The position numbers and the translations under genes are program-made. This document shows positions 25,970-47,129 of a stretch of DNA of 64,000 nt, piece by piece (position 1 is the stretch's first letter; every line of letters begins with the position of its first letter). Location: positions 32,001 through 96,000 of IMG/VR virus record IMGVR_UViG_3300034053_000029; one strand, written 5' to 3'. The notes beneath the pieces were generated by a model. It was not told where the DNA came from. It searched no databases and saw only the letters and a program-made list of their open reading frames with translations. The stretch is from a virus. Lineage: Duplodnaviria; Caudoviricetes.

Positions 25970-26521
25970 TTACAGATCACCATGATGGTCGAATGTCACT
26001 GGAATTTTTTGCATTTCGGCAATGAGGTCTTCCATATTGTAAAATTTAAAATTGTTGGTGTCAATCCCAACGTCTTTAATGCGACCTTGGAGACCAGTAG
26101 GACTAGAATGACAGTGGCCATGAAAATGTATTGCTCCATGCCCCATACCATTCCATCGAGCCATAGGGAAATGGCACATAACAATCTTCTGTTTGTTGAT
26201 CGTGATTTCCTTTAGCTTTTCGACCCAAACAAAATATCGATGAAGCTCGACTTCCTTACGGATTCGATAATCGTGGTTTCCAAGAACGAGCTTGATTTGT
26301 CCTGTGAGCTTTGGCAGAAGATCATACAGACGTTCCTTGCGACCCATAGCAAGATCGCCAAGCACATAAATTTCATCGTGTGGCTTGACCGTTGAAGTCC
26401 AGTAATCAAGTAACGCCTCACTCATGGCATCACTTGTGTCAAATGCGCCACGAGATTCTTGGCAGTATTTTACGATATTCTCATGGTAAAAATGGGTATC
26501 CGCTGTAATCCAAATTGTCAT
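25970..26521 (-). CDS. Calcineurin-like phosphoesterase
   Basis: ADTHFYH, LGD, GNHD, CHFP, HGHCH. Confidence 0.9.
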   Translation of the reverse strand: MTIWITADTHFYHENIVKYCQESRGAFDTSDAMSEALLDYWTSTVKPHDEIYVLGDLAMGRKERLYDLLPKLTGQIKLVLGNHDYRIRKEVELHRYFVWVEKLKEITINKQKIVMCHFPMARWNGMGHGAIHFHGHCHSSPTGLQGRIKDVGIDTNNFKFYNMEDLIAEMQKIPVTFDHHGDL

Positions 26522-26736
26522 AATTTACTCCTAATCAGGTAATGCCTTGTAATGTGCAAGATGTTCAAAAAGTTTGATGATGTAACCGGCAGATGATCCA
26601 GAATGGTCTCGACCATCCAATATGGATAACATCTTAATTACATCGGTGCACAATATCTCTTGCATACCGTCTTTCCAAACTCCGTCAGTAACCCAACCTT
26701 TCCTGACAAACTCACTCATAGCAAATTCTGCGCTGT

Positions 26737-27129
26737 TCATACTTTAATCTCCCATTGAAAACGTGCCTTCATGCGTTCAATAGCTGCCTCTGGCACGTTA
26801 TGAATTGATCCAAACTCACCTTGAACGGTAATAATTTGCAACTTAATTCCCTTCTCTTTCGCCAGATCGATATACGGTTGACATTCCTTTTGAGTAGTGA
26901 AGGTGTTCGATACAATTACACTCATATTGTGACCGAGATATTCATCGGTCTGCCGGAAGCACCACTGATGAGCAGAATGCAATTTCGATTGGTCAAAAAC
27001 GTATTGACCATTTTTCATGAAATACATATCTGCTTCAAAATTAATGGAGTTATTATCTGCACCTAGTGCCTTAGCCAAAGTGGATTTACCTGACCCAGGA
27101 AGACCACGGATGAGTGTTAGTGTTTGCAT
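26737..27129 (-). CDS. P-loop kinase (AAA_33 / polynucleotide kinase-like)
   Basis: RGLPGSGKST, EAD, VIVSNT, HNVP. Confidence 0.85.
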   Translation of the reverse strand: MQTLTLIRGLPGSGKSTLAKALGADNNSINFEADMYFMKNGQYVFDQSKLHSAHQWCFRQTDEYLGHNMSVIVSNTFTTQKECQPYIDLAKEKGIKLQIITVQGEFGSIHNVPEAAIERMKARFQWEIKV

Positions 27130-27572
27130 TATAATCCCTTAATTGTGTCCTTCAACTCCAAATACATTTCATTGTATTTGCGAAGTCGAGCAGTATCTTT
27201 TTCCGTTATCCCTTTAAGCCTACGAATGTCGCTGTTATGACGAAGATCAGCAAGTTTTACAAGAATGGCATCTTTATTGGTCTTAATCCCATCAACATAT
27301 TCACGGTGAGTTTGTCCACGGTATTTGGTCAATAGTCGAAGTGCATCAACTACCCTCTTGGTGAATCCCATTTCAGATAGATCATTAAACGTAACGTCAG
27401 TGTCTTCAACAACATCGTGCATCACCGCAATCATCATAACTTCAAGATCATCAGTTTTGGTGTAATGCATAACTTTCAATGGATGCAAGATATAAGGCAT
27501 ACCACCTTTATCGAATTGCCCCATATGTTTTTCAGAGGCAAGTGCAATTGCTTTAGCTAGAAGAGTTTTCAT
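27129..27572 (-). CDS. HD-domain hydrolase, SpoT/Mesh1-like
   Basis: PYILHPLKV, AVMHDVVEDT, VKLADLRHN. Confidence 0.85.
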   Translation of the reverse strand: MKTLLAKAIALASEKHMGQFDKGGMPYILHPLKVMHYTKTDDLEVMMIAVMHDVVEDTDVTFNDLSEMGFTKRVVDALRLLTKYRGQTHREYVDGIKTNKDAILVKLADLRHNSDIRRLKGITEKDTARLRKYNEMYLELKDTIKGL

Positions 27573-27782
27573 AATACGTCATCCTTAATTTCTTTTTTAT
27601 GAGCAGCACGTTCCGATTTCCAAAACACTCGCTTGCACCAACGAAGGTGTTTCCACCATTGCGGAGACCGAGTTCGTGTTCCTTTTTTAACTGATGCCAT
27701 GATGCCTCCTGTGAAGATTGAATTATACGCCTTATTTAGAACAAGTCAAGAAAAATATAAGTTATTGATTTACAAATGGAAA

Positions 27783-27812
27783 AGGGACAAACCCCTTACG
27801 AGATTTGTCCCT
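27783..27812 (-). terminator. Intrinsic terminator hairpin
   Basis: AGGGACAAA...TTTGTCCCT with adjacent plus-strand A run. Confidence 0.65.
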
Positions 27813-27825
27813 CAATTCGACATTG

Positions 27826-27873
27826 TATAAATAATATGTGGATCACGATGCGCTAACATCTATCCACCCTAGA
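27826..27873 (+). promoter_or_regulatory. Late promoter plus structured leader, family A copy 2
   Basis: TATAAATA 27826-27833; GTGGAT-CAC-GATG-CGCTAA-CATC-T-ATCCAC-CCTAGA at 27838-27873. Confidence 0.75.
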
Positions 27874-27900
27874 ACTTAAACTAAACATGGGAGTCCCAGC

Positions 27901-28542
27901 ATGAATATTTATGCCGAAATGATATCAACAATTGCAATTAAAAACAAATATACCAAATGGTATCTGTCGATTATTTCAAACTCAAAATATAAAGAAGGGT
28001 ATTGTGAAAAACATCATATTCTTCCAAAGTGTTTCAAACTTGGTGGAGAAAAAGACCCATCAAATATCGTCAAATTGACTGCTAAAGAGCATTTTGTTTG
28101 TCATTTGTTATTGACTAAAATGTTCTTAGACAAAAAGAAATTTCAAATGATATACGCTTGCAATCGGATGTGTTTCAAACAAACACCAAATCACAAACGA
28201 GAATATGCAGTTTCATCTTCAGTATATGCTATAGTTAAATCAGAACAATCAAAGTATATGAAAATTAACAATCACAATAAAGATGGCAGTCAATCTAAAG
28301 CAGCATGGGATGTTGCATCCGAAGAAAGACATATAAATCAATCAGCAGTTGCAACTAAAAGGAATATAGAATATTGGGCAACAAGAAAGAAACCAATATT
28401 AGATTTTATATGTGAAGTGTGTGGAATTGAGTTTACATCAAAAAAGGAAAATCGTCGTTGTTGCGGCAAATCTTGTGCAGCAAGACTCAGAAATAAAATG
28501 CGGTGGCTTGGGAAACAAGGTATGCCACCAACCCCGGTTTGA
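27901..28542 (+). CDS. HNH homing endonuclease
   Basis: EKHHILPK...NIVKLTAKEHFVCH; C-terminal CxxC...CxxxC. Confidence 0.85.
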   Translation: MNIYAEMISTIAIKNKYTKWYLSIISNSKYKEGYCEKHHILPKCFKLGGEKDPSNIVKLTAKEHFVCHLLLTKMFLDKKKFQMIYACNRMCFKQTPNHKREYAVSSSVYAIVKSEQSKYMKINNHNKDGSQSKAAWDVASEERHINQSAVATKRNIEYWATRKKPILDFICEVCGIEFTSKKENRRCCGKSCAARLRNKMRWLGKQGMPPTPV

Positions 28543-28800
28543 GTACTCCTTATGCTGCTAAGGCCCAAACAGCGTCATTAGATGCGCCATTTACATAGTT
28601 TATCATCTTCGACCGAGTTGCCCCAATCCTAACGGCTTCTGATTATTGCCGATTCTCCAGATCATATCTATGCCCAATCGAAAGGATTATACAGGCCCAT
28701 GGATAAGCACACATCTCTATGTGCTTATTGGTGGACCTGACGGACACCACGCCGTGTCTTGAACATTTCAACTTTCCTTCAACGAATTCTTAAAATCCTT
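28500..28800 (-). ncRNA. ssrA: Circularly permuted (two-piece) tmRNA
   Basis: 3' acceptor CAGGTCC-A-CCA (ends 28729) lies upstream of 5' GGGCCTG (starts 28698), with a G3:U70 pair. 30-nt hairpin intervening segment. TTCGA-TTGGGCAT pairs with ATGTTCAA-GAC. Tag frame GGC GCA TCT AAT GAC GCT GTT TGG GCC TTA GCA GCA TAA (28588-28550). Outer ends approximate. Confidence 0.88.
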
Positions 28801-28905
28801 CTCTATTCACAAATAATGCACCGTCATAAACCATCCATGATCCACAAAATGTTAACCAGTCACACTTAGATTCTTTCCATACATCAAAGAACTCTTTTTT
28901 CATGT

Positions 28906-29760
28906 TCATGATTTAACCCAACTCGAATTAACCTTAATGAATCCACTAAATGACTTTGGCTCACGTTTCAAAAATCCATAGTCAAGTTTCATGAATCCTT
29001 TTGTCGTTGCGGTTTCTCCGGTATTCCTATCAGTATCTTTAGACACACTCATGTATGACGAATCATCATGGTCGGAATCACGGAACAATACTTGTCCATG
29101 TTTCTTGTCAATACCAAATAACATTAATGCATGATACATATGATTATCATCAGAGACAGATTTCTTTCTGAGCTTCAACGTACCATCAGATAAAAACTTA
29201 CTATTCATAATGGTTCCTGCAGTCTTTGCCATAGCAATAACAGGAACACCGGTCTTGACAACTTCCAATGCAGAATCCAAATCATCAACTTTCTCAGCAT
29301 CGATGGACAACTTCTTACCATTGATCACGACGTTCTTAGACAACCCATCGATAACCTGTTCTAGCGTCAAACCCTTCGTAGGAATTTTAGGATACCATTG
29401 ATCTGAAATAACGGATGGAGAGATACCAAGTTGCATAGCAACCGAATGGACTACCTGCAGGTACAAACAGGCATCACCCTTCGCCTTGATTTTTTTAAAT
29501 TCTTGGTGATGGAGTGCGTTCTTCAAGAACATTAGATTTTCATCGTCATGAATATGTGATGTAGTTGACTCCGAGTTTTTCTTGATCGGAATCAACTCAC
29601 CGTGCGCCTGACGATAAACTGCTTTTCCATCCTTGCCCCAACGAGCAACGTGCATATAGGTTAATCCCATATCTTTTGCACGTTCACTCGTTTCAGACTC
29701 AAGAATCTGATTCACCATTTGTTTTACTTCAGATAACGGTTTCATAGGATAATTCCACAA
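28906..29760 (-). CDS. Papain-fold (C39-like) peptidase domain protein
   Basis: DACLY (Cys), GVPVI, YHALMLFGID (His), FRDS. Confidence 0.6.
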   Translation of the reverse strand: MWNYPMKPLSEVKQMVNQILESETSERAKDMGLTYMHVARWGKDGKAVYRQAHGELIPIKKNSESTTSHIHDDENLMFLKNALHHQEFKKIKAKGDACLYLQVVHSVAMQLGISPSVISDQWYPKIPTKGLTLEQVIDGLSKNVVINGKKLSIDAEKVDDLDSALEVVKTGVPVIAMAKTAGTIMNSKFLSDGTLKLRKKSVSDDNHMYHALMLFGIDKKHGQVLFRDSDHDDSSYMSVSKDTDRNTGETATTKGFMKLDYGFLKREPKSFSGFIKVNSSWVKS

Positions 29761-30344
29761 TGTTGTTCCAAATATTTAGGTACTCTTGAATGTTTGGGTA
29801 TGAACCCTGCTACATATTCTGCTTGATCTGCTAGGATATTACGGTTAGCGAGAATCAATGCTTCATATCTATTTGGTATATAAGGAACCCAAAGTAGTTC
29901 CATGCCGACATCTTCTAAAAACATATTTCCTTTTTTACCATTACATTTTTTGCACGACGAAATGCAGTTCATCCACGAGTCCTTACCACCTTTAGAAACA
30001 GGTATGATATGGTCTCTAGTCAAATGCGACTCTGAAAAATGATGACCACAATATCCACATATTAAGAGATCACGCTTAAATAAAGATGAATTACTCAGTA
30101 CTGGAGTTTTTGCTGCTTGATGTTTGAACTTACCCTTGATACCGATTATCGTACCAATGGTCATAGACGTTCTTTCTCCGGTCATGCGAGAAGTTCCTCC
30201 CATGATCATGTCTGGATCACCTAGTTCAAACGAAATAAGATTTTTTGCTTTTGCTGTCACTGCTGTTTCCCAATGTAACCATTGGTGCGGAAGTCCATCA
30301 CTTGTTAAACCTAAAACTAAATTATGTCTCATCTCAATATCCAT
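29742..30344 (-). CDS. HNH endonuclease (McrA-like Zn/HNH)
   Basis: CGYCG...TRDHIIPVSKGG...NCISSCKKCNGKK. Confidence 0.88.
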   Translation of the reverse strand: MDIEMRHNLVLGLTSDGLPHQWLHWETAVTAKAKNLISFELGDPDMIMGGTSRMTGERTSMTIGTIIGIKGKFKHQAAKTPVLSNSSLFKRDLLICGYCGHHFSESHLTRDHIIPVSKGGKDSWMNCISSCKKCNGKKGNMFLEDVGMELLWVPYIPNRYEALILANRNILADQAEYVAGFIPKHSRVPKYLEQHCGIIL

Positions 30345-30348
30345 TTCA

Positions 30349-30428
30349 TATAAATATATAGGTTAGCTAATATCGTCACATATCAGCAACTCGCTCGGAG
30401 ACGAGCTGTCCCTATGACAATATTTATT
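30349..30428 (+). promoter_or_regulatory. Late promoter plus structured leader, family B copy 1
   Basis: TATAAATA 30349-30356; TATAGG-TTAG-hairpin-hairpin-TGTC-CCTATG. Confidence 0.65.
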
Positions 30429-32275: not shown

Positions 32276-33088
32276 ATGAAAAATCAAACCTGCAAGCACT
32301 GCAATCAGACACTACCGAACCTTTCACCTAAGGTATTTTCTAACCACGTTAGGTGGTGTGATAAAAATCTGAATAGAAAGAAAGTAGGCCCAATTGGTAT
32401 AGCCAAAAGGGCAAAAACGATCAAACAGAATACTTTTAATAGAAAAATAATATTATGGAAAGAATATTACTTAACACCAAAAATATGTGTTGAATGTAAA
32501 AATGAAATTGATTGGTTTAGAAAAGACCAGATGTGTTGTTCTGCATCGTGTGCAGCAAAAGTTTCTAATAGAAATAAAACACCAGAACAAAAACACAAAG
32601 CAAAAAATTGTGGTAAATTGCTAGGCAGAAATAATAAAAAGGTTAAAGAACCAATTGCACCATATTCAAAAGTGTATAAGTGTACTTGTAAGGTATCTGG
32701 TATTGTTTGGTACAGTAAAACAGTAAAGCATATACACCCTAGTGTAACTGAAACTAAACAACAGTACTCATATCAATGTAGATTCAATTTCCAAATTAAA
32801 ACTTATTCTAATTGGTTTTATTATTCATCAGAGTTGATCAATCATTTTGGTTGGTATGCTGCCAAAAATAAAGGTGACAATCTAACCGGATGTTCTAGAG
32901 ATCACTTATACTCTGTAAATGACGGATTTATCAATAATGTTGATCCAAAAATAATTTCTCATCCAGCTAATTGTGAGATAAAACCACATAAACAAAATCA
33001 ATCCAAAGGCAGATCATCTTCAATAACTTTAACAGAATTGTTAGATAGAATTACAACTTTTGAAAATAAGTATGGGAGAGTGGTATGA
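32276..33088 (+). CDS. HNH-type homing endonuclease with Zn fingers
   Basis: CxxC motifs; SRDHLYS...HPANC...HKQNQSK; start trimmed to MKNQ. Confidence 0.78.
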   Translation: MKNQTCKHCNQTLPNLSPKVFSNHVRWCDKNLNRKKVGPIGIAKRAKTIKQNTFNRKIILWKEYYLTPKICVECKNEIDWFRKDQMCCSASCAAKVSNRNKTPEQKHKAKNCGKLLGRNNKKVKEPIAPYSKVYKCTCKVSGIVWYSKTVKHIHPSVTETKQQYSYQCRFNFQIKTYSNWFYYSSELINHFGWYAAKNKGDNLTGCSRDHLYSVNDGFINNVDPKIISHPANCEIKPHKQNQSKGRSSSITLTELLDRITTFENKYGRVV

Positions 33089-33147
33089 GAATCGAACTCA
33101 TTTGATTAGTTTTGCAGACTAACACCTAACCATTCGGACAACCACTC
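33074..33147 (-). tRNA. tRNA-Cys(GCA)
   Basis: GAGTGGT/ACCACTC acceptor stem, U73, loop CTGCAAA; encoded end is CCC, not CCA. Confidence 0.88.
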
Positions 33148-33188
33148 TCACATAATTACTCTAGTCATTCGGCCAACGTCATATTGTT

Positions 33189-33262
33189 TGGAAGGGGTAC
33201 TTGGAATCGAACCAAGTCTAATGCTGTCAAAGAGCATGGTGCAGCCAATACACTTTACCCCT
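33189..33262 (-). tRNA. tRNA-Gln(TTG)
   Basis: Cloverleaf, loop CTTTGAC, CCA. Confidence 0.9.
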
Positions 33263-33268
33263 ATTGTT

Positions 33269-33342
33269 TGGTGGGTCATGAAGGTACTGCCCCTTCGTCG
33301 ACTGGTTAAAAGCCAGATGTTCTACTATTGAACTAATGACCC
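33269..33342 (-). tRNA. tRNA-Lys(TTT)
   Basis: Loop CTTTTAA, atypical T loop GGCAGTA, CCA. Confidence 0.88.
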
Positions 33343-33918
33343 GAAATAGGCGAGTTTCATTTCTCCCTAAAGAAACTAATCCTCGATCTTCACTGTTATT
33401 CCACAGCATGGCAGACTAGCCACTGTTCCAATTAAAAGGGATAATGACAAGCGGAACATAATCTCTAGTTACTCGTCATTATTTTTCGCTCACGATTTTG
33501 CTCTCTACCACAAAGGGAGCGTGGTAGGCGAGGAAGCACCGAAGTTCTTATTTGCTAATATGTACCAATGCCCACAATGCTACGATTGGAGCAATGACCA
33601 ATCCAATTGCTATAATTCCACCGATCATGTGACTCTCCTATCGAAATAGCAGCAATGGAACTGCTGCACTTACCATAAACAATGCGACACCGTGTATCGC
33701 TAACCATAGACTGAATTTTAGTTCATCTACGACTTTATCAATCACGACGTGTATCCTTGATATCACGCATAATCATTGATTCTGCTAGTTGACGATGTGA
33801 GTGTGATTCAAACGTGGAAAGCCACTCTAGAAATTTAATAATTAAAGTCATGTAATGCTCCTAATGAAAGATAATATTTATGCTGCAATGCAGCACATTT
33901 CTCCTTCTCCAACCCTCA

Positions 33919-34443
33919 TTAGGATTTATTCAAACTAAGTTTCTGCGGCACTTTTAATGACGATTCTATTGCCCTAGAAAGTGGGACTTGTCTAACATAT
34001 TCATTACTTGCTTTGCGGTTATTCCACGGAACAAGATCATATTCTAATATTACGTTACTGTCAAGAACAACAGCACGAGTACAAAGATTATTCATCTGAA
34101 CGTATTTCACCAGAAAGTTATTAGCAAACTTGAATGGGACATTCTTAAATAGCTTTTGTTCTTTTTTCCAAAGACAATCTTTACGTTCAATGCAGTTGAT
34201 CGTTTTAAATGGAAAATCAATATCGCCTTTCCAATTTTCATGTCGCACTTCAACTTCCCATGCAGCAATAACTTTTTTATCAGCATTCAACGATAAAACA
34301 TCTATTCCAAATTTGTTAGGGTTCTCGATATGAAATGGGACATCTGTAATTCTATACTTCAATCTAGCAATCAGTGCATCTTTACCTTTTTTATCCCATT
34401 TATTGTGTTCTTCCTCATCGAATGGTTTTAATGATCCTATCAT
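33919..34443 (-). CDS. Hypothetical protein, possible PD-(D/E)XK fold
   Basis: GIDVL...WEVEVR; start trimmed to MIGSL because the longer ORF overlaps a tRNA. Confidence 0.6.
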   Translation of the reverse strand: MIGSLKPFDEEEHNKWDKKGKDALIARLKYRITDVPFHIENPNKFGIDVLSLNADKKVIAAWEVEVRHENWKGDIDFPFKTINCIERKDCLWKKEQKLFKNVPFKFANNFLVKYVQMNNLCTRAVVLDSNVILEYDLVPWNNRKASNEYVRQVPLSRAIESSLKVPQKLSLNKS

Positions 34444-34458
34444 ATGATCCTCATAAAA

Positions 34459-34553
34459 TGGTACTCCCGACTGGACTCGAACCAGTATCATCAGCCAATC
34501 TAGCCGCAATGCCGAGGTATAAGCTCGGAGTTTTACCGTTAAACTACAGGAGT
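34459..34553 (-). tRNA. tRNA-Ile(TAT) with long variable arm
   Basis: ACTCCTG/CGGGAGT acceptor stem, CCGAG-CTTATAC-CTCGG anticodon arm, about 25-nt extra arm, CCA. Confidence 0.82.
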
Positions 34554-34619
34554 ATTAAATAAAACTGGATACGCATAGTTGAGTAAAAGTCAATTGTGAT
34601 TGCTGTAGGTATCCAAAAC

Positions 34620-34696
34620 TGGTCGGAGATGAGAGATTCGAACTCCCGACATCTTGCTCCCAAAGCAAGCGGTCTACCAGACTGACCTAATCTCCG
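34620..34696 (-). tRNA. tRNA-Pro(TGG)
   Basis: Loop TTTGGGA, CCA. Confidence 0.92.
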
Positions 34697-34703
34697 ATAA
34701 TGC

Positions 34704-34778
34704 TGGCGCCCCCACACGGAATCGAACCATGAACTAGACTTTAGAAGAGTCCTGTTATATCCATTTAACTATAGGGAC
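34704..34778 (-). tRNA. tRNA-Arg(TCT)
   Basis: Loop CTTCTAA, CCA. Confidence 0.92.
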
Positions 34779-34785
34779 GAAATTC

Positions 34786-34864
34786 TGGCTCCGTATCTAG
34801 GGAACGATCCTAGCTAGTCAGTGATTAACAGTCACGCCCATGCACCAAGCTCGGGTTATACGGA
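34786..34864 (-). tRNA. tRNA-Asn(GTT)
   Basis: Loop CTGTTAA, G73, CCA. Confidence 0.9.
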
Positions 34865-34872
34865 ATTGTTAC

Positions 34873-34946
34873 TGGTGCCTATTGACGGAATCGAACCGCC
34901 ATAACAAGATTACAAATCTAGCGTAATACCATTATACGAAATAGGC
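34873..34946 (-). tRNA. tRNA-Thr(TGT)
   Basis: Loop TTTGTAA, CCA. Confidence 0.9.
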
Positions 34947-34953
34947 ATAAAAC

Positions 34954-35026
34954 TGGTTGCGACCACGGGAGTTGAACCCGCTTCCATCTTGGCTTATGAG
35001 GCCAGAGTCTACCACTAGAAGTCGCA
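34954..35026 (-). tRNA. tRNA-Met or Ile2 (CAT), short D arm
   Basis: Loop CTCATAA, TGCGACT/GGTCGCA acceptor stem, CCA. Confidence 0.8.
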
Positions 35027-35259
35027 ATTAATTAAAAGTATCTTGTCTTGGGTTTAAGGACACCATTTAATCCTCCTTACAGGTCTCTAGTAATCATCTA
35101 GCATAGCAAGGATATTGACAGTGACTTTGACAAGCAAGTTCGTTGATTAGACGATTTGTTCCCATACTTATTTAAACGGAATGACTTTTTGCTCCTTATT
35201 TTTATGTCCGGTAAGCAAACGGACTGCCATTAAATTGATTGCTGTAATCATTCCAAAAC

Positions 35260-35335
35260 TGGTGGAGACGGTCGGAATCAAACCGACCACAGAATCATTG
35301 CAAGTGATTCTCGCCCTCTTGGTACATTCGCCCCC
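35260..35335 (-). tRNA. tRNA-Ala(TGC)
   Basis: Loop CTTGCAA, G3:U70, CCA. Confidence 0.9.
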
Positions 35336-35393
35336 GTTATTTCTGTAACATATGCATAGTATATAGTGTCTGCATATTGAAGTCAAGTAATTT

Positions 35394-35476
35394 TGGTGGG
35401 ACAGGAGAGATTTGAACTCTCAAGCCGAAGCGTCTGAGCTTAAATCAGATGTGTTTGCCAATTTCACCACAGTCCC
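35394..35476 (-). tRNA. tRNA-Leu(TAA)
   Basis: Loop TTTAAGC, variable arm, CCA. Confidence 0.9.
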
Positions 35477-36229
35477 ATGTTCTTTAATTTGTTCAAGAAT
35501 ACCATCCCAATTAAATGATCTCTTATCTGAACTTAGTAATATTATTATGCTAACTCCAAGCTCTATTTCACAAAGATTAATTTTTTGTATTTGTAATTCT
35601 TGTATTTTGATTATTCTTTCGCTTCGTTCATTTGTAGATTTCTTACACCACATACTCTTTGGGTCTAAATAAACATTAAAATCTGGTAAATAAAAATCTG
35701 GTTCATACTTACGACCATCTGACAATACTAGTGGTGTTGGTCTCGACCACACAATTCTATTTTTATCCAATATATTAGCAACTTGCCATTCATGTATAGA
35801 TTCTAAATTAAACTTTAACCCAAATGAATCTATGTAAGGTATATAATTTCTTTTCCACCGTAATGTTGGATTTGCTGCTACTCCAGCTATACTTGGTTTC
35901 CATTTTCCAATGATGAACGATTCGTGTCGAGATTCTATTTGTTTTGATATACTTTGGTGAGTATCTTTTGTGTGCCCTTTACTCCAGTTCATCTTATCCT
36001 TAATTTCTTGAGGTAAGTTTTCATATCTTTGTTTGGCAGGTACTCTGCCACCATTTATATATGATTCTTTCGTACCTTTGCTATTTTTCTCTTTACATTT
36101 CGGACATTGTGTTGATCTAGGACTACACATCAAATTGCCAGATAAGTTTATATATTTTGCAATCTGATTACACCCATAATGACAAAGTTCTGCTGTTATT
36201 ATTTGTTCTGATTTTCTATGTTTTCCCAT
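35420..36229 (-). CDS. Putative homing endonuclease, PD-(D/E)XK type
   Basis: N-terminal CxxxC/CxxC; YEPDFYL...YLDPKS; start at MGKH after GAGG; C-terminus runs into tRNA-Leu. Confidence 0.78.
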   Translation of the reverse strand: MGKHRKSEQIITAELCHYGCNQIAKYINLSGNLMCSPRSTQCPKCKEKNSKGTKESYINGGRVPAKQRYENLPQEIKDKMNWSKGHTKDTHQSISKQIESRHESFIIGKWKPSIAGVAANPTLRWKRNYIPYIDSFGLKFNLESIHEWQVANILDKNRIVWSRPTPLVLSDGRKYEPDFYLPDFNVYLDPKSMWCKKSTNERSERIIKIQELQIQKINLCEIELGVSIIILLSSDKRSFNWDGILEQIKEHGTVVKLANTSDLSSDASA

Positions 36230-36301
36230 TTGTGCCTCGATGATAAATGTATACATATATTTATCATTTTACACTCTTGAGTATACCAATTATTTAAAAT
36301 C

Positions 36302-36375
36302 TGGTACTTCGTGATGGTTATGCTCCACCGTAGCCGCTTTATCAAAACGGTATTCTTCTATTGAATTAACGAAGC
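36302..36375 (-). tRNA. tRNA-Ile(GAT)
   Basis: Loop TTGATAA, CCA. Confidence 0.88.
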
Positions 36376-36383
36376 ATTATTAC

Positions 36384-36470
36384 TGGAGCAGGAGACAGGA
36401 ATCGAACCTGCTTACGGCTTTCGCCTTACTTGATTGGAAGTCAAGCGCCTAACCAATAGGCTACACCTGC
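36384..36470 (-). tRNA. tRNA-Gly(TCC) with long variable arm
   Basis: CTTGA-CTTCCAA-TCAAG, U73, extra arm GGC-GAAA-GCC, CCA. Confidence 0.85.
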
Positions 36471-36477
36471 ATAATTT

Positions 36478-36551
36478 TGGCGAGTCTGTAAGGAATTTAA
36501 CCCTATCCGCCGAGGTTGGAACTCGGAATGCTAACGTAACACTTCAGACCC
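36478..36551 (-). tRNA. tRNA-Trp(CCA)
   Basis: Loop TTCCAAC, G73, CCA. Confidence 0.88.
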
Positions 36552-36560
36552 ATATTGTTT

Positions 36561-36632
36561 TGGTGCCCAATGAAGGAGTCGAACCTTCTCAGTCGTGATT
36601 CGTATTCACAACGCCGTTCCGTCGGATTGGAC
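36561..36632 (-). tRNA. tRNA-Arg(ACG)
   Basis: Loop ATACGAA, short D arm, CCA. Confidence 0.82.
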
Positions 36633-36638
36633 TTTATT

Positions 36639-36714
36639 TGGTGCCGCCTCGTGGTTTCGATCCACGCTTTCCACCTTTTCAGGGTAGCACTTTCACCAGA
36701 TTAGTTTAAGCGGC
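36639..36714 (-). tRNA. tRNA-Phe(GAA)
   Basis: Loop CTGAAAA, CCA. Confidence 0.9.
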
Positions 36715-36721
36715 AATGATT

Positions 36722-36808
36722 TGGTGCGAGTGACAGGCATCGAACCTGTAAGACCGTTAAGTCGCTGACTTCTAAAGACAGTGTGTTTCCCAATTTCACC
36801 ACACTCGC
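36722..36808 (-). tRNA. tRNA-Leu(TAG)
   Basis: Loop TTTAGAA, variable arm, CCA. Confidence 0.9.
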
Positions 36809-36818
36809 ATTGTGTTAC

Positions 36819-36915
36819 TGGAGGAAAAGGTGAGATTCGAACTCACGGCCCACGGATGGTTACGGGACGCTGGTTTTCAAGACCAGAGCAATAAACCGGA
36901 CTCTGCCACTTTTCC
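36819..36915 (-). tRNA. tRNA-Ser(TGA)
   Basis: Loop CTTGAAA, long variable arm, CCA. Confidence 0.92.
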
Positions 36916-36925
36916 ATTGTGTTAC

Positions 36926-37015
36926 TGGCGGAAGAATGAGGTCACGATCCCCATGCCATATTTCAGGCACCTATCGTTTAGCAAACGATGCTGTCACCTT
37001 GACAATTAATCTTCC
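36926..37015 (-). tRNA. tRNA-Ser(GCT)
   Basis: Loop TTGCTAA, long variable arm, G73, CCA. Confidence 0.9.
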
Positions 37016-37024
37016 ATTTAATTT

Positions 37025-37100
37025 TGGTCAGAGTGGGGAATTACGATATCCCAACCTCCTGTATCCAAGACAGGCCGTCTTCCTTTGACAATACACTCAG
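37025..37100 (-). tRNA. tRNA-Pro(TGG), second divergent copy
   Basis: CCTGT-CTTGGAT-ACAGG, CCA. Confidence 0.82.
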
Positions 37101-37108
37101 ATAATTCT

Positions 37109-37183
37109 TGGTATCGCACTGGGGTTTCGATCCCCACTCACTAGTTTGAAGGACTAGTTGCCACGCCAGCTGCATCGTGCGAT
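37109..37183 (-). tRNA. tRNA-Glu(TTC)
   Basis: CTAGT-CCTTCAA-ACTAG (C at position 33), CCA. Confidence 0.8.
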
Positions 37184-37294
37184 GTATAAATTCTTGCTAT
37201 GTCCTTTTGCGAGGACTCTAGTTGTGGCTTGAGAGGCATCGTTCCTAGAATCGAGAGGCACTTCCACCAAACCGTAAAGCGACGGTCTGCATTT

Positions 37295-37369
37295 TGGCGA
37301 CACGGAAGGGAATCAAACCCTCATAAGTCTCCTAGACAGGGAGATGCATTATCAATCTGCCACCGTGCC
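37295..37369 (-). tRNA. tRNA-Asp(GTC)
   Basis: Loop CTGTCTA, G73, CCA. Confidence 0.9.
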
Positions 37370-38743: not shown

Positions 38744-38995
38744 AAAATAAACACACACCTAAAATTTTAACAAGCAGACTTCTTTCCGACAATACTTTCA
38801 CATAATAAGGGACGACTCGAACGTCCATCGTCGGCTTGAGCGCCGATCTGCCTCCCAGCACTTATTCCACTACTGGCATCATCTTCGATCTGTCTTTTGC
38901 TTGTTGATCAGACAAGTGCTTTATCGTTCTTACCCAATCTCAGGCGACCGACTTGAACGGTGCATCGAACTATGTCGCTTCACAGCGAGATATTT

Positions 38996-39085
38996 TGGTG
39001 GGGCATGGACGGAATCGAACCTCTTGCCTAGAAGGACTGCGTTTACAGCGCAGCGGCGACACCAGTCTGCCCTTATTGCACACCC
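38996..39085 (-). tRNA. tRNA-Tyr(GTA)
   Basis: Loop CTGTAAA, variable arm, CCA. Confidence 0.9.
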
Positions 39086-39268
39086 CAAATTTATTAGCGG
39101 AGAAGTACCATCTTCTCCTTTCACCTGTACTCAGGATCACCTTTTGGGCGTGACATTAACTGTTTGGTAATGTTGCCTCAGTGGATACCAACCACCTTAC
39201 TAGAGGTTACAGTAGCATTGTCTACTCAACAATAACAGTCAAATTTATTACGCACTCTTTTGAATGCG

Positions 39269-39359
39269 GATTGTTAAGTATTCTTGAAAGAATCGAACTT
39301 TCGTCCTACCCGCCCCCTGCCGGAAAGCCTCAGACACCATTTAAGAACACTTAACAATC
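39269..39359 (-). ncRNA. tRNA-like small RNA with T arm and 17-bp closing stem
   Basis: GATTGTTAAGTGTTCTT / AAGAATACTTAACAATC; GAAAG-TTCGATT-CTTTC. Confidence 0.6.
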
Positions 39360-39531
39360 GGTGGCTCGATCACTCACACCACCTGATGTTTTCGATCTAT
39401 CTCCCACGATAGCTTCTCAACACCCTCCGACTTTTCACACCATGTTTTAAGTGCGGTGCCTGGCCTCGTTACCAGATAACTTAACACACTCTGCTACTGA
39501 GACTACATTTTATTCTACTTCTGAAACCTTG

Positions 39532-39648
39532 TCAATAACTATTTTGGTACTTCTCTTTCCGTTTGAAGGAACCCTTACCCTTCTTGGAACCAACAACACG
39601 CATCCGGTACTTTGGAGTGCGAAGGTCTTTAGCGATTGGGTTTTTCAT
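39532..39648 (-). CDS. arfA: ArfA-like alternative ribosome-rescue factor (38 aa)
   Basis: KNPIAKDLRTPKYRMRVVGSKKGKGSFKRK aligns by eye with the ArfA core [29 protein letters not shown]. Confidence 0.75.
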   Translation of the reverse strand: MKNPIAKDLRTPKYRMRVVGSKKGKGSFKRKEKYQNSY

Positions 39649-39803
39649 TTTACTTACCTTTAGCAAAAAGTGTATAACCAGAAACCCGTTGCAACACAAC
39701 CACCGCAAGCATATTATTAACACATTTCCACTCACGATGCACAGGATTAAAAACGTAGTATTTCATTTCCGTATTCCTCTTGTTGCGTCATTCGATGGAA
39801 CGA

Positions 39804-39852
39804 ATTTTACTCTCTTTTAAACTTTCGTCAACTACTTTCGTAAGTGACTGAT
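39804..39852 (-). promoter_or_regulatory. Early sigma70-type promoter cassette (copy 5)
   Basis: TTGACG-16-TAAAAT; CAACTACTTTCGTAAGTGACTGATT. Confidence 0.75.
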
Positions 39853-39859
39853 TTACAAA

Positions 39860-39890
39860 AGAAAAACCCGAAACTTTTTGGGTTTCGGGT
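39860..39890 (-). terminator. Intrinsic terminator
   Basis: ACCCGAAAC...GTTTCGGGT hairpin with adjacent plus-strand A tract. Confidence 0.7.
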
Positions 39891-40622
39891 CATCTTTGGT
39901 GCCACATTTTTTACTTTTAAGATGACCCTACATACAATCTCCCTGCTCGGAATACGCACGACCAAAGAGACTAACTGGCATTGGATTATGCCATAAGTTA
40001 GTTCTAATTGTAGTGGGTATGCGTTTCATTGGTCTTTTTATTCCTAAAAATTTATATGATTCTATTATACTTATATGGTATTTATGTAAATTGGGATTTC
40101 TCTTACAAACTGTTACAACTCTGGATGGAGTTCGTGATATAACCCGCACTACAGGGAATGTCTTTCACATTCAGTCATTGGCGACTTTTACCAATTAGCA
40201 GATAGTCTTTCCTACCAGTCAACCGTCTTTCCAGTTTGTCATCCACTTTTAGGATTTCTCCCTACTTATGATATTAGAATGTCTTTTTATTTTTGCAGAA
40301 TCCATCCAATTGTTTATTTATACTACCTGATTACTTGAGAACTGCAGACTTCATTCCACGATGACCACGCCAATGAATCTTTGCATTACCTGCCTTGGTG
40401 TATTCTACCTTGGAAACAGTTACGGTGCGTGGAAGATGAAGTTTCTCCTGAGTGCCGTTATCGTTAATGCGAGTTCCTGCAGGAATCATAACCTTTGATC
40501 CTTCGGAAATCATTGACTTGATGGTTTGGGTGGTTTGTGTTGTCTTCATATGTGATACCTTTCATAATAAATGTCGCAGTTTAAAAAGAAAGCTAGTTTG
40601 CGACATGACTAGCATTCGGAAA

Positions 40623-42872: not shown

Positions 42873-43075
42873 TTTACTTCTCCTATCGAATGATTACTCC
42901 GACTTCTGGATCAAATTGGATTTTTGCAGGTACAAGAGTACCGTTTCCATCGTCCATCAAAACATTGGGTGGTTCAAATCCAGAACCAACTTCTAAGCGC
43001 CCATTCGCCTTAGCCCATACAAAGTAATCGTAGTTAATTTGCTGAAGTTCCTTGATAAAGGAATCCAGAGATATA

Positions 43076-43648
43076 CTATTTAGCATTATGAATTCCCCAA
43101 CTTAGTGCTTGATTATAGAATGAACGAACCGACTTGTCAATGATAGCGATGTTTTCGTATATCATATTCTTTTGGATTTCACGAATCCTCTCGGAAAATG
43201 TCGTACAAATTGCCGCCTCTGCTAGTGCAGTCTCATGGTCATTCACGATACGCATACCCAATTTCTTAGCAATGGTTTGCATGGGTTTGTTATCTCGCAA
43301 ACACTCCATAACTAGCTTAGTGACACCTGATGCCTTGCACCAAGTGATAATACGCTTCATTAGATCGACACCTAGACCTTTGCCCTTATATTCATCAGAA
43401 ACTGACATACCAAGTTCATATTGGTCGGAATCGACTTTACCTAGATGAACGAAGGCAACTAGATTTGCTCCAGAGAAACACCCAAAACACACATCACCAT
43501 TCCATCGAATACGCTCGACATAAGATTCGATTCCAACATTGGTAATATTGGAAAAGAATCGTAGTCTACGGTCATCCTCATTGAGAGCAAACAAATGATC
43601 TAGAATTTGATGATCATTGGTTTCATTCAATTCACAAATTGGTAGCAT
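43076..43648 (-). CDS. GNAT acetyltransferase
   Basis: RRLRFF, SVSDEYKGKGLG, N..M..IAKKLG. Confidence 0.82.
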   Translation of the reverse strand: MLPICELNETNDHQILDHLFALNEDDRRLRFFSNITNVGIESYVERIRWNGDVCFGCFSGANLVAFVHLGKVDSDQYELGMSVSDEYKGKGLGVDLMKRIITWCKASGVTKLVMECLRDNKPMQTIAKKLGMRIVNDHETALAEAAICTTFSERIREIQKNMIYENIAIIDKSVRSFYNQALSWGIHNAK

Positions 43649-43655
43649 ATATGTC

Positions 43656-43889
43656 CTATGAATATTTTAATAGTAAAAGTATAAAGGCATTTTCTTCCAT
43701 TTCAAACCAATCGTCGCCAGAAAGTTCGGCTCGATATGAATTGGATGGTCTCGGCATCGTCTTCGCATTATGTTCGGTGATGAACATCTGCCAAGGAGAT
43801 TCATAACCAGCGGCAATATATCCTTGGACAATTACATCTTTGAACTTCTCCGGAAGATGCTCTTGCCAACAACGAATAATATTAGCCAT
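43656..43889 (-). CDS. FxLK family microprotein
   Basis: Ends EENAFILLLLKYS. Confidence 0.6.
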   Translation of the reverse strand: MANIIRCWQEHLPEKFKDVIVQGYIAAGYESPWQMFITEHNAKTMPRPSNSYRAELSGDDWFEMEENAFILLLLKYS

Positions 43890-44913
43890 CGTTTTTCAAG
43901 AGCCAACTATTACTGATTGCCTTGAATGAAGTCGATCCATCAACCGCTTTGAACACTACTCCCTCACGAGACTTTGCATTCAGTGATGGGCCTTCTGCAT
44001 ACTTTAGAATGTCATCGACCGTATTCAATTCAAGATCAGACAATCGATCAAAGTTAGCAAGGATAGGAACGTGCTTCAATCCAAATTGCTTACATAATTC
44101 TTGTCTACGAGCAGTTGACAGATATTCACATTCAACTGGATCATATATGTCAAATACATACAGGTCTTGTCCCTTGATCCCTTCCTTGTTTCCTTGGACA
44201 CCTTCACCAATCAATTCGCCACTGATTTGAATTGGTCGACCATACGCCTTCAGTTGTTCTTCCAAGTTATATTTCTTGCATACTTGAACAAACGAATTAC
44301 CTTCCTGATCCGTCTTGAGATTCATATTACGACTACAAACGGTGTAAGTCAGGTCGTTGACCAATCCAACAGAGCAAGATGATCCATCGAGTTTGATCGT
44401 GACTTCATACTCATGCTGCTTCAAGTAATAGAATTCTTTGTTAGAAAATCCTTGGATGCGCTCTTGATCGGTCTTGCGCCACTCGGACGGGAAATTACCA
44501 CGAACCGTTCCAGATAGACAAGCAGCAATTGGTGCTTCCCACTTTTGAATACGCAGTTCATCGGTAACATCTTCACCTTCAACAAAGATAGGAGATAGTG
44601 CATGATCTACCAATAATTCAATTGGTAGAATCAAACCTTGACTGATCTGACCACGCAGTTTTACTGTACGAAGACGCTCGCCCTTCACTCCGTTGTATTC
44701 TCTTGGGAAAGCACCTTTCGACAAGAACGGAGCAAGTTCAGTAGGAACCCAAGAATCGATTTCCAGATAGATAACCAGATCACCGATATTGAACTCACCA
44801 CGCTTGACAACAACCCACCAAGAATTGATCTGCGCTTTTTCAATTGCGTCTGCCCCCTCGATAGGTTGAATATCTACGATCTTTTGAATGGATGCTAGTT
44901 TACGTTCAGTCAT
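43882..44913 (-). CDS. RNA ligase, DRB0094/Rnl2-type family
   Basis: RKLASIQ...IEGADAIE, TIKLDGSS, GELIG, YVFDI, REGVVFK, FKAIS. Confidence 0.9.
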   Translation of the reverse strand: MTERKLASIQKIVDIQPIEGADAIEKAQINSWWVVVKRGEFNIGDLVIYLEIDSWVPTELAPFLSKGAFPREYNGVKGERLRTVKLRGQISQGLILPIELLVDHALSPIFVEGEDVTDELRIQKWEAPIAACLSGTVRGNFPSEWRKTDQERIQGFSNKEFYYLKQHEYEVTIKLDGSSCSVGLVNDLTYTVCSRNMNLKTDQEGNSFVQVCKKYNLEEQLKAYGRPIQISGELIGEGVQGNKEGIKGQDLYVFDIYDPVECEYLSTARRQELCKQFGLKHVPILANFDRLSDLELNTVDDILKYAEGPSLNAKSREGVVFKAVDGSTSFKAISNSWLLKNDG

Positions 44914-45422
44914 TATTAATTCGCCTTAGTCACCGAGGTCTTGAACAGGAAATTAGACAAAATATACAAACCCCATGCTTGCAGTAAAGTAATTTCACTC
45001 ACACCTGCAACCACACCAACCAAACAATAATTCCACAGCAGCATAATAGGGATTGCAAGCAATATACCAAATACAATTACCAAAGCAATAAACATCACAC
45101 CAAGAATAGCACCTTCTTTCATTTTATTTCCTTCACTCAAAAGATTCATCAATCGCCTGATACAGATCAGACTCATTTACCATATATTCTTCAGCAACCA
45201 ATTTGACTGCGAACTCAATCGGCATCCCTGCCATAACGTGCTTTCGCACTTCGTTCAGAGCATCACGATAGCAGAACATATTATTTCTCCAAAATACGAA
45301 CGGTGTAACCTTCGTCTTGCCAGTAATCGGCAAGACTTTGTGCTTGCTTCTCAGACTTACAGTTATACGCTTCGATTAGGTTATCACCAGAATAAACAAG
45401 AACTGACATTTCAATCTCCCAA

Positions 45423-45941
45423 TTAAATGAAGGACTTCGACTTACCAGTATATTCTACCTTACTTCCACACGATTTGCAACTAACTGTCTTGCGAGGATT
45501 TTGAAGGGCAAGAACAGTTTTCTTCGTCACCCAATGAGACTGACAGGTGCAAACAACTTCATAGCGAATCTTAGTGCGAGTTTGCTTGACGCTAGATACA
45601 TCATATGAATGGCACCGTGTTCCACGCCCACCAAGGCTTTTATCGACTGCCTTAAACTCAGGGCCATGTGCTTGCTTGGCATAGGGTCGCACTTTGTGAG
45701 TGACCAAATGAGCAACTTCATGGATGATCGTATCAACAAAAGATGACGCATTTTCTTTCGCCAACACTTCATTAAACTCAAGACGATTTTTCTGGCAATA
45801 TGCCAAACCTGCATGACCACCTTTGGAATAAAAGCCAACGGTTGGAACGGTAAGCCGGAGATTAGGATAAATCCGGTTAGCCTTCTCGACAATCTCGACA
45901 ACCTTAGCTTTGATGGTAGTACGATCCATGATTCGCTCCAC
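45423..45941 (-). CDS. SprT-like metalloprotease
   Basis: TIIHEVAHL, HGPEFK, CxC/CxxC; first gene after promoter copy 6. Confidence 0.85.
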   Translation of the reverse strand: MERIMDRTTIKAKVVEIVEKANRIYPNLRLTVPTVGFYSKGGHAGLAYCQKNRLEFNEVLAKENASSFVDTIIHEVAHLVTHKVRPYAKQAHGPEFKAVDKSLGGRGTRCHSYDVSSVKQTRTKIRYEVVCTCQSHWVTKKTVLALQNPRKTVSCKSCGSKVEYTGKSKSFI

Positions 45942-45961
45942 ATCGTTAGTTGATGGGATGA

Positions 45962-46012
45962 ATTATAAAGATCGTACTACATCTTGTCAACAACTTTCGT
46001 AAGTGGTTGATT
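45962..46012 (-). promoter_or_regulatory. Early sigma70-type promoter cassette (copy 6)
   Basis: TTGACA-17-TATAAT; GTCAACAACTTTCGTAAGTGGTTGATT. Confidence 0.85.
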
Positions 46013-46572
46013 TAAAAGGCTTCTACTCCAAAGTTGTCTAGTAATATTCTGGTCTGTTCGAGAGAATCTTCTAGTGCGTCATGGAATGTCTTGTCGGACT
46101 TTGCTCGAATTGCTCTAACGTCAATCCCCAAAACCTTACATAAAGTTCTCATGTCCATTTCACGATGATAGTCCCAAGGTGCAACCATCTTACACCTTGA
46201 GTAAGCGGTTTTCAATACTGCCGCATCAAAAGAAATTCCGTTTGCCCAAAAACTATACTCTTGACCATCACTAAACCATTGTTCAAATTTCAACAATGCC
46301 TCTTTGATATCGATCTGATTAGTCTGCCAAGAGTGTTGTGCTGTTTTAGATTGCTTTGCCCACCATTCACAAGTGTCTTTGCTAATGTGTAGTCCGACAC
46401 TCTTACAAGAAATTGGATCAATATTCACTTTGAATTTGTCTAGTATGACCGACCCTCGAAAATCAAACTTACATGCGCCTATCGAAACGATACACGCATG
46501 AGTTTCCGTGCTGAGTGTCTCTAGATCGACCATACAACCTTTTATGGTCTGGAATGCTAACAACTCACTCAC
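46012..46572 (-). CDS. DEDD 3'-5' exonuclease (DexA-like)
   Basis: VDLETL, WANGISFD, DMRT, HDALED. Confidence 0.85.
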   Translation of the reverse strand: MSELLAFQTIKGCMVDLETLSTETHACIVSIGACKFDFRGSVILDKFKVNIDPISCKSVGLHISKDTCEWWAKQSKTAQHSWQTNQIDIKEALLKFEQWFSDGQEYSFWANGISFDAAVLKTAYSRCKMVAPWDYHREMDMRTLCKVLGIDVRAIRAKSDKTFHDALEDSLEQTRILLDNFGVEAF

Positions 46573-47129
46573 GATAAGTTTCCAATAATGTCGCAGATAC
46601 CAAACTTCTTAGCCTCTTCTGCATTCAAATATACGTCTTGATGTGGTAACAAGTATTTCTTGATATCTTTTTCGGATATTCCTGTGAATTTTTTATAGTG
46701 CGCCAACATTCTTTCACTAGTTAGGTCGTATTCTCTTGTCGCTGCAATCAACTCATGTTGTTTTCCGACATTACCCCAACTCCAAGTGTGACTCATGATG
46801 CTTGTATTTTTTGTTAAAGTTCTAAATCCCTTTTTTCCTGCTAAGAATATCATCAATCCTGCTGATGCAATTTGTCCTAATCCAATTGTTCTAATTGGAA
46901 TATGCGACCCAATCATCACATCGATAATACTAAATGCTGCATGCATATCACCACCAGGACTATTAATCAGCATATTCAATACTTCAGGTTTATCTTCAGC
47001 AAAATTTGAATCAAATACCCATTGTGTAATTTGTTCCGATCTCTCTAAGCTAACATCACCATACAACATATAAAATGATTGATTTGGTCGCTTGTTGTCC
47101 ATCTGTAAATCATTTAGCTTTAATAGCAT
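46569..47129 (-). CDS. clpP: ClpP-like protease subunit
   Basis: INSPGGD, GQIASAG (Ser), IMSH (His), QDVYL (Asp), AKKFGICD. Confidence 0.85.
   Translation of the reverse strand: MLLKLNDLQMDNKRPNQSFYMLYGDVSLERSEQITQWVFDSNFAEDKPEVLNMLINSPGGDMHAAFSIIDVMIGSHIPIRTIGLGQIASAGLMIFLAGKKGFRTLTKNTSIMSHTWSWGNVGKQHELIAATREYDLTSERMLAHYKKFTGISEKDIKKYLLPHQDVYLNAEEAKKFGICDIIGNLS

Follow-up and report, generated by a model that had tools for sequence, protein, structure and literature searches.

A survey of 18,146 phage genomes counted 53 two-piece transfer-messenger RNAs (tmRNAs), 50 of which are aquatic; the OM43 phage Melnitz and the pelagimyophages are examples of the carriers (PMC9004378). The mycobacteriophages of the Bxz1 type and Bacillus phage G possess a tmRNA and no phage SmpB (PMC4131195), huge phages encode a tmRNA, release-factor-like genes and many tRNAs, which were read as maintaining translation (PMC7162821), and gp30 of the pelagiphage HTVC027P is a phage ArfA that is transcribed (PMC12753301). 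Ever since the mycobacteriophage examples, it has been asked why a phage should have a tmRNA and no SmpB of its own. The present analysis concerns a stretch of 64,000 nucleotides, the window, which comprises bases 32001-96000 of an IMG/VR virus record; this record is 210,171 bp long, has direct terminal repeats and is rated 100% complete. Between positions 25970 and 47129, the window contains a permuted tmRNA gene, a very short arfA, a gene for a Clp-family peptidase, tRNA genes and genes of the RNA-repair type. Each of these parts is already known in phages, as the two-piece tmRNAs, the tmRNAs without SmpB, the rescue and termination genes of huge phages and the pelagiphage ArfA demonstrate; no published account of the trio formed by tmRNA, peptidase and either ArfA or the family DUF7230 was found in an incomplete literature search.

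A sequence-only reading of the window had described these genes as one integrated translation-rescue system. Every element that it named is present, from the end of the phosphoesterase gene at 25970 to the start of clpP at 47129, and the phage does encode the tmRNA route, the ArfA route and a Clp-family peptidase, while SmpB, RF2 and an unfoldase must come from the host. The idea of integration is not supported, as the translation and rescue genes are strewn over 21 kb and form no operon, with parts up to 18 kb apart among genes for an HNH endonuclease, a hemerythrin, SLT and GNAT-like proteins and proteins of unknown family. The tmRNA, the peptidase and ArfA or an ArfA-derived gene do travel together in relatives; clpP has no adjoining partner or adaptor. 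The reading preferred here, which is given about an even chance of being right, is one of scattered accessory genes that add to the capacity of the host to free stalled ribosomes during infection, rather than of one operon-like system.

The phage has a GC content of 38% and, by its gene content, is T4-like: its genome contains a gp21-type prohead protease (PF03420), and its closest contigs carry UvsX/RecA together with the T4-type Rnl1 and Pnkp. Gene by gene, the best cultured relatives are freshwater cyanophages of the Kyanoviridae. No phage close at the DNA level was found among 50,697 phage records by megablast and blastn of the region and of the tmRNA, and a search for relatives through the unknown open reading frames (ORFs) that flank the tmRNA and arfA found none.

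The tmRNA gene is circularly permuted, with the CCA-ended acceptor piece first, then a spacer and then the coding piece, and the Rfam alignment runs through model positions 1-213 in that order. The acceptor stem has 7 bp (GGGCCUG pairs with CAGGUCC), including a G3:U pair, and is followed by a discriminator A and a CCA end. A G3:U acceptor pair specifies alanine. The tag frame follows UAAAU, is 12 codons long (GGC GCA UCU AAU GAC GCU GUU UGG GCC UUA GCA GCA UAA) and ends in ALAA. The gene is missed by ARAGORN at default settings and by Rfam at the gathering score. A permissive Rfam search matched RF04321 (tmRNA_permuted) over the whole length (28550-28787, minus strand) with 44.1 bits and E-values from 1.9e-7 to 6e-6, the latter in a 23-kb search; the betaproteobacterial two-piece model RF01850 gave 33 bits against a cutoff of 84, with an E-value of 4e-7, so that both matches are significant in spite of the cutoffs. 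Relaxed ARAGORN likewise reported a permuted tmRNA with the tag GASNDAVWALAA. Furthermore, an nhmmer profile built from the tmRNAs of nine relatives, with the window excluded, had a single significant match in the 210-kb genome, in the tag region (E 3.8e-4).

These nine tmRNAs, which score 84-155 bits and have tags of the ANDxxxALAA type, also provide comparative support. Three fully complementary versions of the acceptor stem occur among the relatives and the window (GGGGGUG/CACCUCC, GGGGAUG/CAUCUCC and GGGCCUG/CAGGUCC), all of which keep G3:U, and the P2 pairs covary between the window tmRNA and its relatives. The most similar tmRNA is that of G007 (101 bits), whose acceptor stem is identical and whose T-loop is likewise odd. 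Taken together, these data make the gene very probably a real tmRNA. Several points weigh against this assignment: the score is below the curated RF04321 cutoff (44.1 versus 47 bits); the T-arm is atypical, with 4 pairs (ACGG/CCGU) and an 8-nt loop in place of the canonical 5 pairs and GUUCRANUC-type loop; one helix of the Rfam model is absent; and the precursor folds just mildly better than shuffled sequences (z -2.0). Non-canonical T-loops occur in tRNA-Lys(UUU) (loop GGCAGUA, 33272-33342) and tRNA-Asn(GUU) (loop GAUCGUU, 34786-34864) as well as in the tmRNA (28741-28756). Because of such loops, standard tools miss or under-score the tmRNA and several tRNAs, and since the phage tRNA-Lys has a similar loop, that of the tmRNA is read as a lineage style and not as decay. 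Two further candidates were set aside: an origin of the gene as a captured attachment-site fragment is ruled out by the complete gene, the homologues in lytic T4-like relatives and the intact tag frame, and a 17-mer of the T-arm and acceptor recurs at 54 loci in viral contigs, none of which is tmRNA-like outside the 17-mer.

The window tmRNA shares with the Melnitz and pelagimyophage tmRNAs the permuted order, a T4-like aquatic phage as its carrier, the absence of a phage SmpB and an intact degradation tag (PMC9004378). It differs from the Melnitz type in being much more divergent, so that ARAGORN at default settings and the Rfam cutoff miss it, and in matching best the betaproteobacterial and not the alphaproteobacterial clan model; moreover, neither the window nor three relatives gave a match to a glutamine riboswitch such as that of Melnitz. 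Neither ArfA nor ClpP is mentioned in that report (PMC9004378). The Bxz1-type and phage G tmRNAs, in turn, are one-piece molecules from phages with Gram-positive or actinobacterial hosts and without ArfA, unlike the window phage (PMC4131195).

The sequence-only reading had noted that no SmpB gene is in the window, and this was confirmed; a search of the whole genome for smpB and clpX found neither. SmpB is also missing from all 20 larger viral records that were selected for ArfA, that is, from 0/21 genomes with that of the phage itself included. Huge phages, in contrast, often carry SmpB (PMC7162821), whereas in the lineage of the window the tmRNA is paired with ArfA or DUF7230 and a Clp-family peptidase. 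The whole genome also lacks ClpX/ClpA, SspB, Pth and RtcB. RF2 was not found in the genome either, where the only RF-1-domain match is a small GGQ gene of ArfB-like size. This gene lies outside the window (L004:1456-1838, minus strand; C1:~19578-19960 in the phage's own genome) and occupies two frames, split in a run of nine A directly after the GGQ codons; ten A would restore the single frame GGQ-KK-NKTSSAV. Intact homologues, with frames of 132-179 aa, occur in four of eight complete relatives, and the split may stem from a homopolymer error in the assembly, from slippage or from decay to a pseudogene.

The lack of a phage SmpB, together with the atypical T-loop, raises the question of whether the tmRNA is a decoy, which would titrate host SmpB and block the tagging of phage proteins while ArfA provides tag-free release. 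Such titration has been proposed for a phage tmRNA that consists of the tRNA-like domain only (PMC4131195), and an ArfA that escapes tmRNA feedback would suit it. However, the tag frame, the UAAAU context and the ALAA end are intact here and conserved in relatives, the similar loop of the phage tRNA-Lys means that the T-loop is no sign of decay, and a Clp-family peptidase suits tagging better than blocking. A decoy is therefore considered very unlikely.

ArfA scores 32.3 bits on PF03889 (cutoff 25.5) for the ORF 39532-39735, within which the start could be placed by comparison: among 523 short homologues found, 24 were aligned with the window protein, and all 24 begin at the same Met, in the motif MK(K/R)N, so that the arfA start is at 39648 and the protein is 38 aa long. 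An SD-like (Shine-Dalgarno-like) AAGG is present 8-11 nt upstream of this ATG. The motif KKGKGS is invariant in the 25-sequence alignment, and residues 3-36 align (E 4e-4) with residues 14-47 of E. coli ArfA in the structures of the 70S-ArfA-RF2 complex (PDB 5MGP, 5U4I and 5H5U); these residues are the part of ArfA that rests on the ribosome and touches RF2. Compared with the E. coli protein, the phage ArfA is without the first ~10 and the last ~25 residues. The two genes also differ in design: E. coli arfA is expressed from a non-stop mRNA truncated by RNase III and is repressed by tmRNA, whereas the phage mRNA has an in-frame TGA after codon 38 and folds no better than shuffled sequences (z +0.93). 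An E. coli-style non-stop arfA is thus ruled out by the gene's own stop codon and the lack of a hairpin, and the phage gene does not have the design that subjects E. coli arfA to tmRNA control.

Short ArfA proteins of this kind are not confined to the window. A mini-ArfA is encoded on at least 430 viral contigs, and at least 391 genome records have a chromosomal form of 33-41 aa that contains KGKGS; the best 80 of these all belong to Pelagibacteraceae and include complete chromosomes. The mini-ArfA of SAR11 and gp30 of HTVC027P (PMC12753301) represent the same 35-45-aa form as that of the window phage. A 2024 survey of rescue pathways recorded arfA in 0 of 2,376 Alphaproteobacteria (PMC11633108); the SAR11 ArfA of 35-40 residues went uncounted in it. 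In the present analysis, tblastn of the 38-aa protein against phages returned one weak match, and the apparent rarity of phage ArfA was dismissed, given a query that is short and of low complexity, the published phage ArfA (PMC12753301) and the at least 430 viral contigs. In the closest relatives arfA heads the tRNA array. Over 80 arfA loci, 37 tRNAs were counted within 5 kb downstream and 1 upstream, and tRNA-Tyr is the first tRNA downstream of arfA in the window as it is in the relatives L059 and L060.

About 1.4 kb around arfA (38744-39531 and 39736-40330) contains no convincing ORF but does include tRNA-Tyr and two degenerate tRNA-like elements (38803-38866 and 39277-39350); a search for known RNA families in the ORF-poor 1.6 kb about the gene found tRNA-like elements only. 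A late-promoter motif is located at 40315-40322, with the bidirectional terminator of 39865-39891 coming 430 nt later. The tRNA array of L059, a related T4-like contig, includes a GOLLD RNA (188 bits) with an embedded tRNA at a distance of 2.3 kb on the downstream side of ArfA (L059:12435-12906); GOLLD had no match in the window.

The three genes recur together in relatives. Among the 20 ArfA-selected records, a permuted tmRNA was found in nine and the peptidase in six, all six within those nine. A second sample consisted of the 20 largest records from at least 458 contigs with the peptidase; here, 18 of 20 have the tmRNA, including all four complete genomes, and none has a protein that passes the Pfam ArfA model. 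Instead, the four complete genomes all contain a DUF7230 gene, and all eight complete relatives with the peptidase have the permuted tmRNA plus either ArfA or DUF7230. In all 11 complete or near-complete genomes examined, tmRNA and peptidase are either both present (9 genomes) or both missing (2 genomes); this set includes a 345-kb phage and a Kyanoviridae isolate with peptidases only 37-51% identical to that of the window. The cultured cyanophage BUCT-ZZ01 encodes the peptidase and a tmRNA (112 bits) and has no ArfA.

DUF7230, judging from profile comparison and shared residues, is a relative of ArfA. HHalign matches it to mini-ArfA with 99.4% and an E-value of 2e-21; the proteins are 42-59 aa long (L118:9992-10132, L096:9998-10141, L323-L327 and others), and both families share the invariant core N-x-x-AKDLRTPKYRMR, with a 3-residue deletion within KGKGS in DUF7230. 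It is DUF7230, and not canonical ArfA, that occurs in most phages with tmRNA and peptidase. As far as these genomes indicate, the trio of tmRNA, peptidase and ArfA or DUF7230 is a conserved feature of a large clade.

Two opposite readings of this distribution have to be weighed against that of accessory genes supplementing the host. The more ambitious one, which is tentative, is that tmRNA, peptidase and either ArfA or the KGKGS-less DUF7230 form a selected, lineage-wide module of a large clade of aquatic T4-like phages, which would run its own trans-translation and turnover of tagged proteins on host SmpB, RF2 and ClpX, with DUF7230 as a new class of ArfA-derived rescue factor. The other, which is possible rather than probable, is that the genes were acquired separately, co-occur by shared ancestry and have no joint function, the peptidase serving lysis, maturation or some other process. 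The co-occurrence comes mostly from related phages, so that the counts are not independent and may reflect shared descent instead of selection for joint function. In addition, other phages with a tmRNA, such as pelagimyophages, are absent among 166 phage records with this peptidase, and phages with a tmRNA and without the peptidase exist. The distances of 5-18 kb between the parts, which lie among unrelated genes, also favor independent acquisition, whereas the 11/11 concordance, extending to the 345-kb phage and the Kyanoviridae isolate with their distant peptidases, argues against it.

Several observations on the peptidase itself also favor independence of the genes. The sequence-only reading had called it a ClpP with an intact triad. 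The triad is intact, as Ser89-His114-Asp165 matches the triad positions of solved ClpPs and is invariant in six orthologues, but equivalence to ClpP is not proven. The protein is far under the ClpP cutoffs (TIGR00493, 66 versus 308.6 bits; PRK00277, 82.8 versus 249) and under the NCBIfam model for ClpP-related head-maturation proteins (62.8 versus 120), and profile positions 1-22 of PF00574 are unmatched, so that the N-terminal ~20 residues of canonical ClpP are not seen. Because of the failed cutoffs and this missing segment, docking of host ClpX is no more than a possibility. No ClpX-like partner or adaptor adjoins clpP in the window or in relatives, and the whole genome contains no AAA_2 unfoldase or SspB. 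These scores count against the preferred reading, as does gene order: the peptidase sits in a PhoH-endolysin block, and its constant neighbors in relatives are cell-wall hydrolases and PhoH, along with a methyltransferase-like gene, rather than rescue genes. In the relatives G004, G006 and G011 the endolysin and the peptidase flank the tmRNA; in the window, PhoH, endolysin and peptidase are contiguous and the divergent tmRNA is 18 kb off, indicating that it has moved relative to the block. The best PHROGs match of the peptidase is 'head maturation protease', which would fit a separate role, but head maturation is already covered by gp21, and the presence of this separate gene makes a prohead protease unlikely.

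Both the tRNA genes and the RNA-repair-type genes were also part of the sequence-only reading. Its almost full tRNA set proved generous. At default thresholds ARAGORN and Rfam give 16 tRNAs. Cloverleaves checked by hand contribute those for Lys, Tyr and Ala as well as a second CAU tRNA, and under relaxed settings Asn, Arg(ACG), Ser(GCU), Glu and a doubtful Pro join the list. The total is ~23 candidate genes for 18 of the 20 amino acids, with none for Val or His. Two of the tRNAs are unusually long for their class, tRNA-Ile(UAU) with 95 nt (34459-34553) and tRNA-Gly(UCC) with 87 nt (36384-36470).

As for the ligase, kinase and phosphatase, the first is firm by its equivalog score and the other two are identified only at the level of generic families, with RNA as no more than a putative substrate. 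The ligase consists of an N-terminal OB fold and a nucleotidyltransferase domain (TIGR02306, 192.7 versus 151.15) and matches PDB 5COT over its full length (residues 4-337, E 2.4e-76). The kinase had no informative relative among solved structures, and its identity as a polynucleotide kinase is weakly supported. T4 repairs tRNA against the anticodon nuclease PrrC with Pnkp and Rnl1, and the window resembles T4 in having a phage RNA ligase and end-healing-type kinase and phosphoesterase genes beside tRNA genes. However, T4 Pnkp is a bifunctional kinase and HAD phosphatase that works with Rnl1, whereas the T4-type pair is not found in the window, which has an Rnl5-type ligase, a stand-alone AAA_33 kinase and a separate calcineurin-type phosphatase, the last two 17 kb from the ligase.

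In three lineages, ArfA and the tRNA array have an RNA ligase gene on their upstream side, with two ligase families at the same position: G007 has an Rnl5-type orthologue, and L059 has T4 Rnl1 and Pnkp at the syntenic spot. This position appears to be the best hint that links RNA repair to the tRNA/ArfA region. It also counts in favor of the sense that the sequence-only reading had seen in the genes, a dedicated counter-defense against host ribonucleases (anticodon nucleases, mRNA interferases of the RelE type, and retron or CRISPR RNases), in which the phage would replace cut tRNAs, reseal RNA and clear stalled ribosomes; T4 Rnl1/Pnkp is the classic answer to PrrC, and the predicted promoter makes arfA apparently early. 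On the other hand, no sequence feature ties the genes to a defense system, the ligase here is of the nick-sealing duplex RNA type and not the tRNA-repairing Rnl1, the kinase and phosphoesterase are generic, and phage-induced decay of host mRNA also yields non-stop complexes. A dedicated counter-defense is thus regarded as unlikely.

If the genes do supplement host rescue, the following course of events may be envisaged. Cleavage at the spacer hairpin would turn the tmRNA precursor into two pieces joined by base pairing; host alanyl-tRNA synthetase would charge the tmRNA through G3:U, and host SmpB and EF-Tu would bring it to ribosomes stalled at mRNA 3' ends, which would add the ALAA-ended tag and terminate. 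Tagged products would then pass to host ClpX with host ClpP, possibly with the phage peptidase. ArfA, made early from the sigma-70-like promoter, would recruit host RF2 for peptide release without tagging, and with a stop codon of its own and without an internal hairpin it would escape the tmRNA feedback of E. coli arfA. The decoding supply would be sustained by the tRNAs and perhaps by the RNA ligase. The trigger may be either host ribonucleases or the breakdown of host mRNA by the phage itself, and the data fit both. The occurrence of the trio in one large uncultured group of water phages turns the question of SmpB-less tmRNAs into a concrete, testable three-gene hypothesis, for which a cultured relative is available in Synechococcus phage BUCT-ZZ01, a phage of S. 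elongatus PCC 7942 with two of the three genes. If the genes are unconnected, the locus is an ordinary case of the translation-support genes common in large phages. The features are collected in Table 1.

Table 1. Features of the translation and rescue region, in window coordinates, with the evidence for each
Feature	Position	Strand	Evidence or remark
tRNA-Met(CAU), outside 25970-47129	17083..17158	-	ARAGORN, Rfam 73 bits
Calcineurin-like metallophosphoesterase	25970..26521	-	PF12850/PF00149; phrog_547 'phosphoesterase' 175 bits
Small P-loop kinase (AAA_33)	26737..27129	-	Pfam 52 bits; PHROG 'ATPase' 135 bits, 'polynucleotide kinase' 48 bits
HD-domain hydrolase, similar to the (p)ppGpp hydrolase domain of SpoT/RelA	27129..27572	-	HD_4 below cutoff; phrog_990 206 bits; NCBIfam spoT_relA 53 bits, partial
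Predicted circularly permuted (two-piece) tmRNA gene	28491..28819	-	Rfam, relaxed ARAGORN, nhmmer profile, covariation
T-arm, then 3' acceptor strand CAGGUCC	28739-28733	-	Sequence reading
Discriminator A, then CCA end	CCA 28731-28729	-	Sequence reading
30-nt spacer, folds as 11-bp hairpin	28728-28699	-	Fold
5' acceptor strand GGGCCUG with G3:U	28698-28692	-	Sequence reading
UUCGA D-loop, then P2 helix, UUGGGCAU paired with AUGUUCAA		-	Sequence reading
Tag frame GASNDAVWALAA and stop	28588-28550	-	Rfam alignment, reading, relaxed ARAGORN
Terminator-like GC hairpin with U-run	28529-28491	-	Sequence reading
tRNA array	33073..37369	-	15 tRNAs over Rfam cutoff; ~21 tRNA-like genes once relaxed and hand-checked calls are counted; interspersed with ORFs of unknown family
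tRNA-Tyr(GUA), class II	39001..39085	-	Weak Rfam tRNA-Sec match, cloverleaf with GUA anticodon, synteny
Second near-consensus promoter (11/12), overlapping arfA stop codon	39535-39507	-	Consensus pattern match only
arfA, 38 aa, KKGKGS motif, own TGA stop	39532..39648	-	PF03889, alignment
Sigma-70-like promoter after the hairpin below, upstream of arfA	39831-39804	-	Consensus pattern match only
Terminator-like hairpin, strong, bidirectional, upstream of arfA	39891-39865		Pattern scan
ATP-dependent RNA ligase, DRB0094/Naegleria (Rnl5) type	43882..44913	-	PF21189 and PF09414
Rv2179c-like 3'-5' exoribonuclease, overlaps clpP stop codon	46012..46572	-	PF16473 129 bits
Clp-family (S14) serine peptidase, 186 aa	46569..47129	-	PF00574 95.5 bits

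Two neighboring genes deserve mention. Between the GH19 endolysin gene and clpP lies an ORF of 62 aa (47192-47380, minus strand) that is zinc-ribbon-like, with two CxxC pairs, and is accompanied by a terminator-like hairpin. The HD-domain gene, flanked by those for the tmRNA and the kinase, may encode a small alarmone hydrolase.

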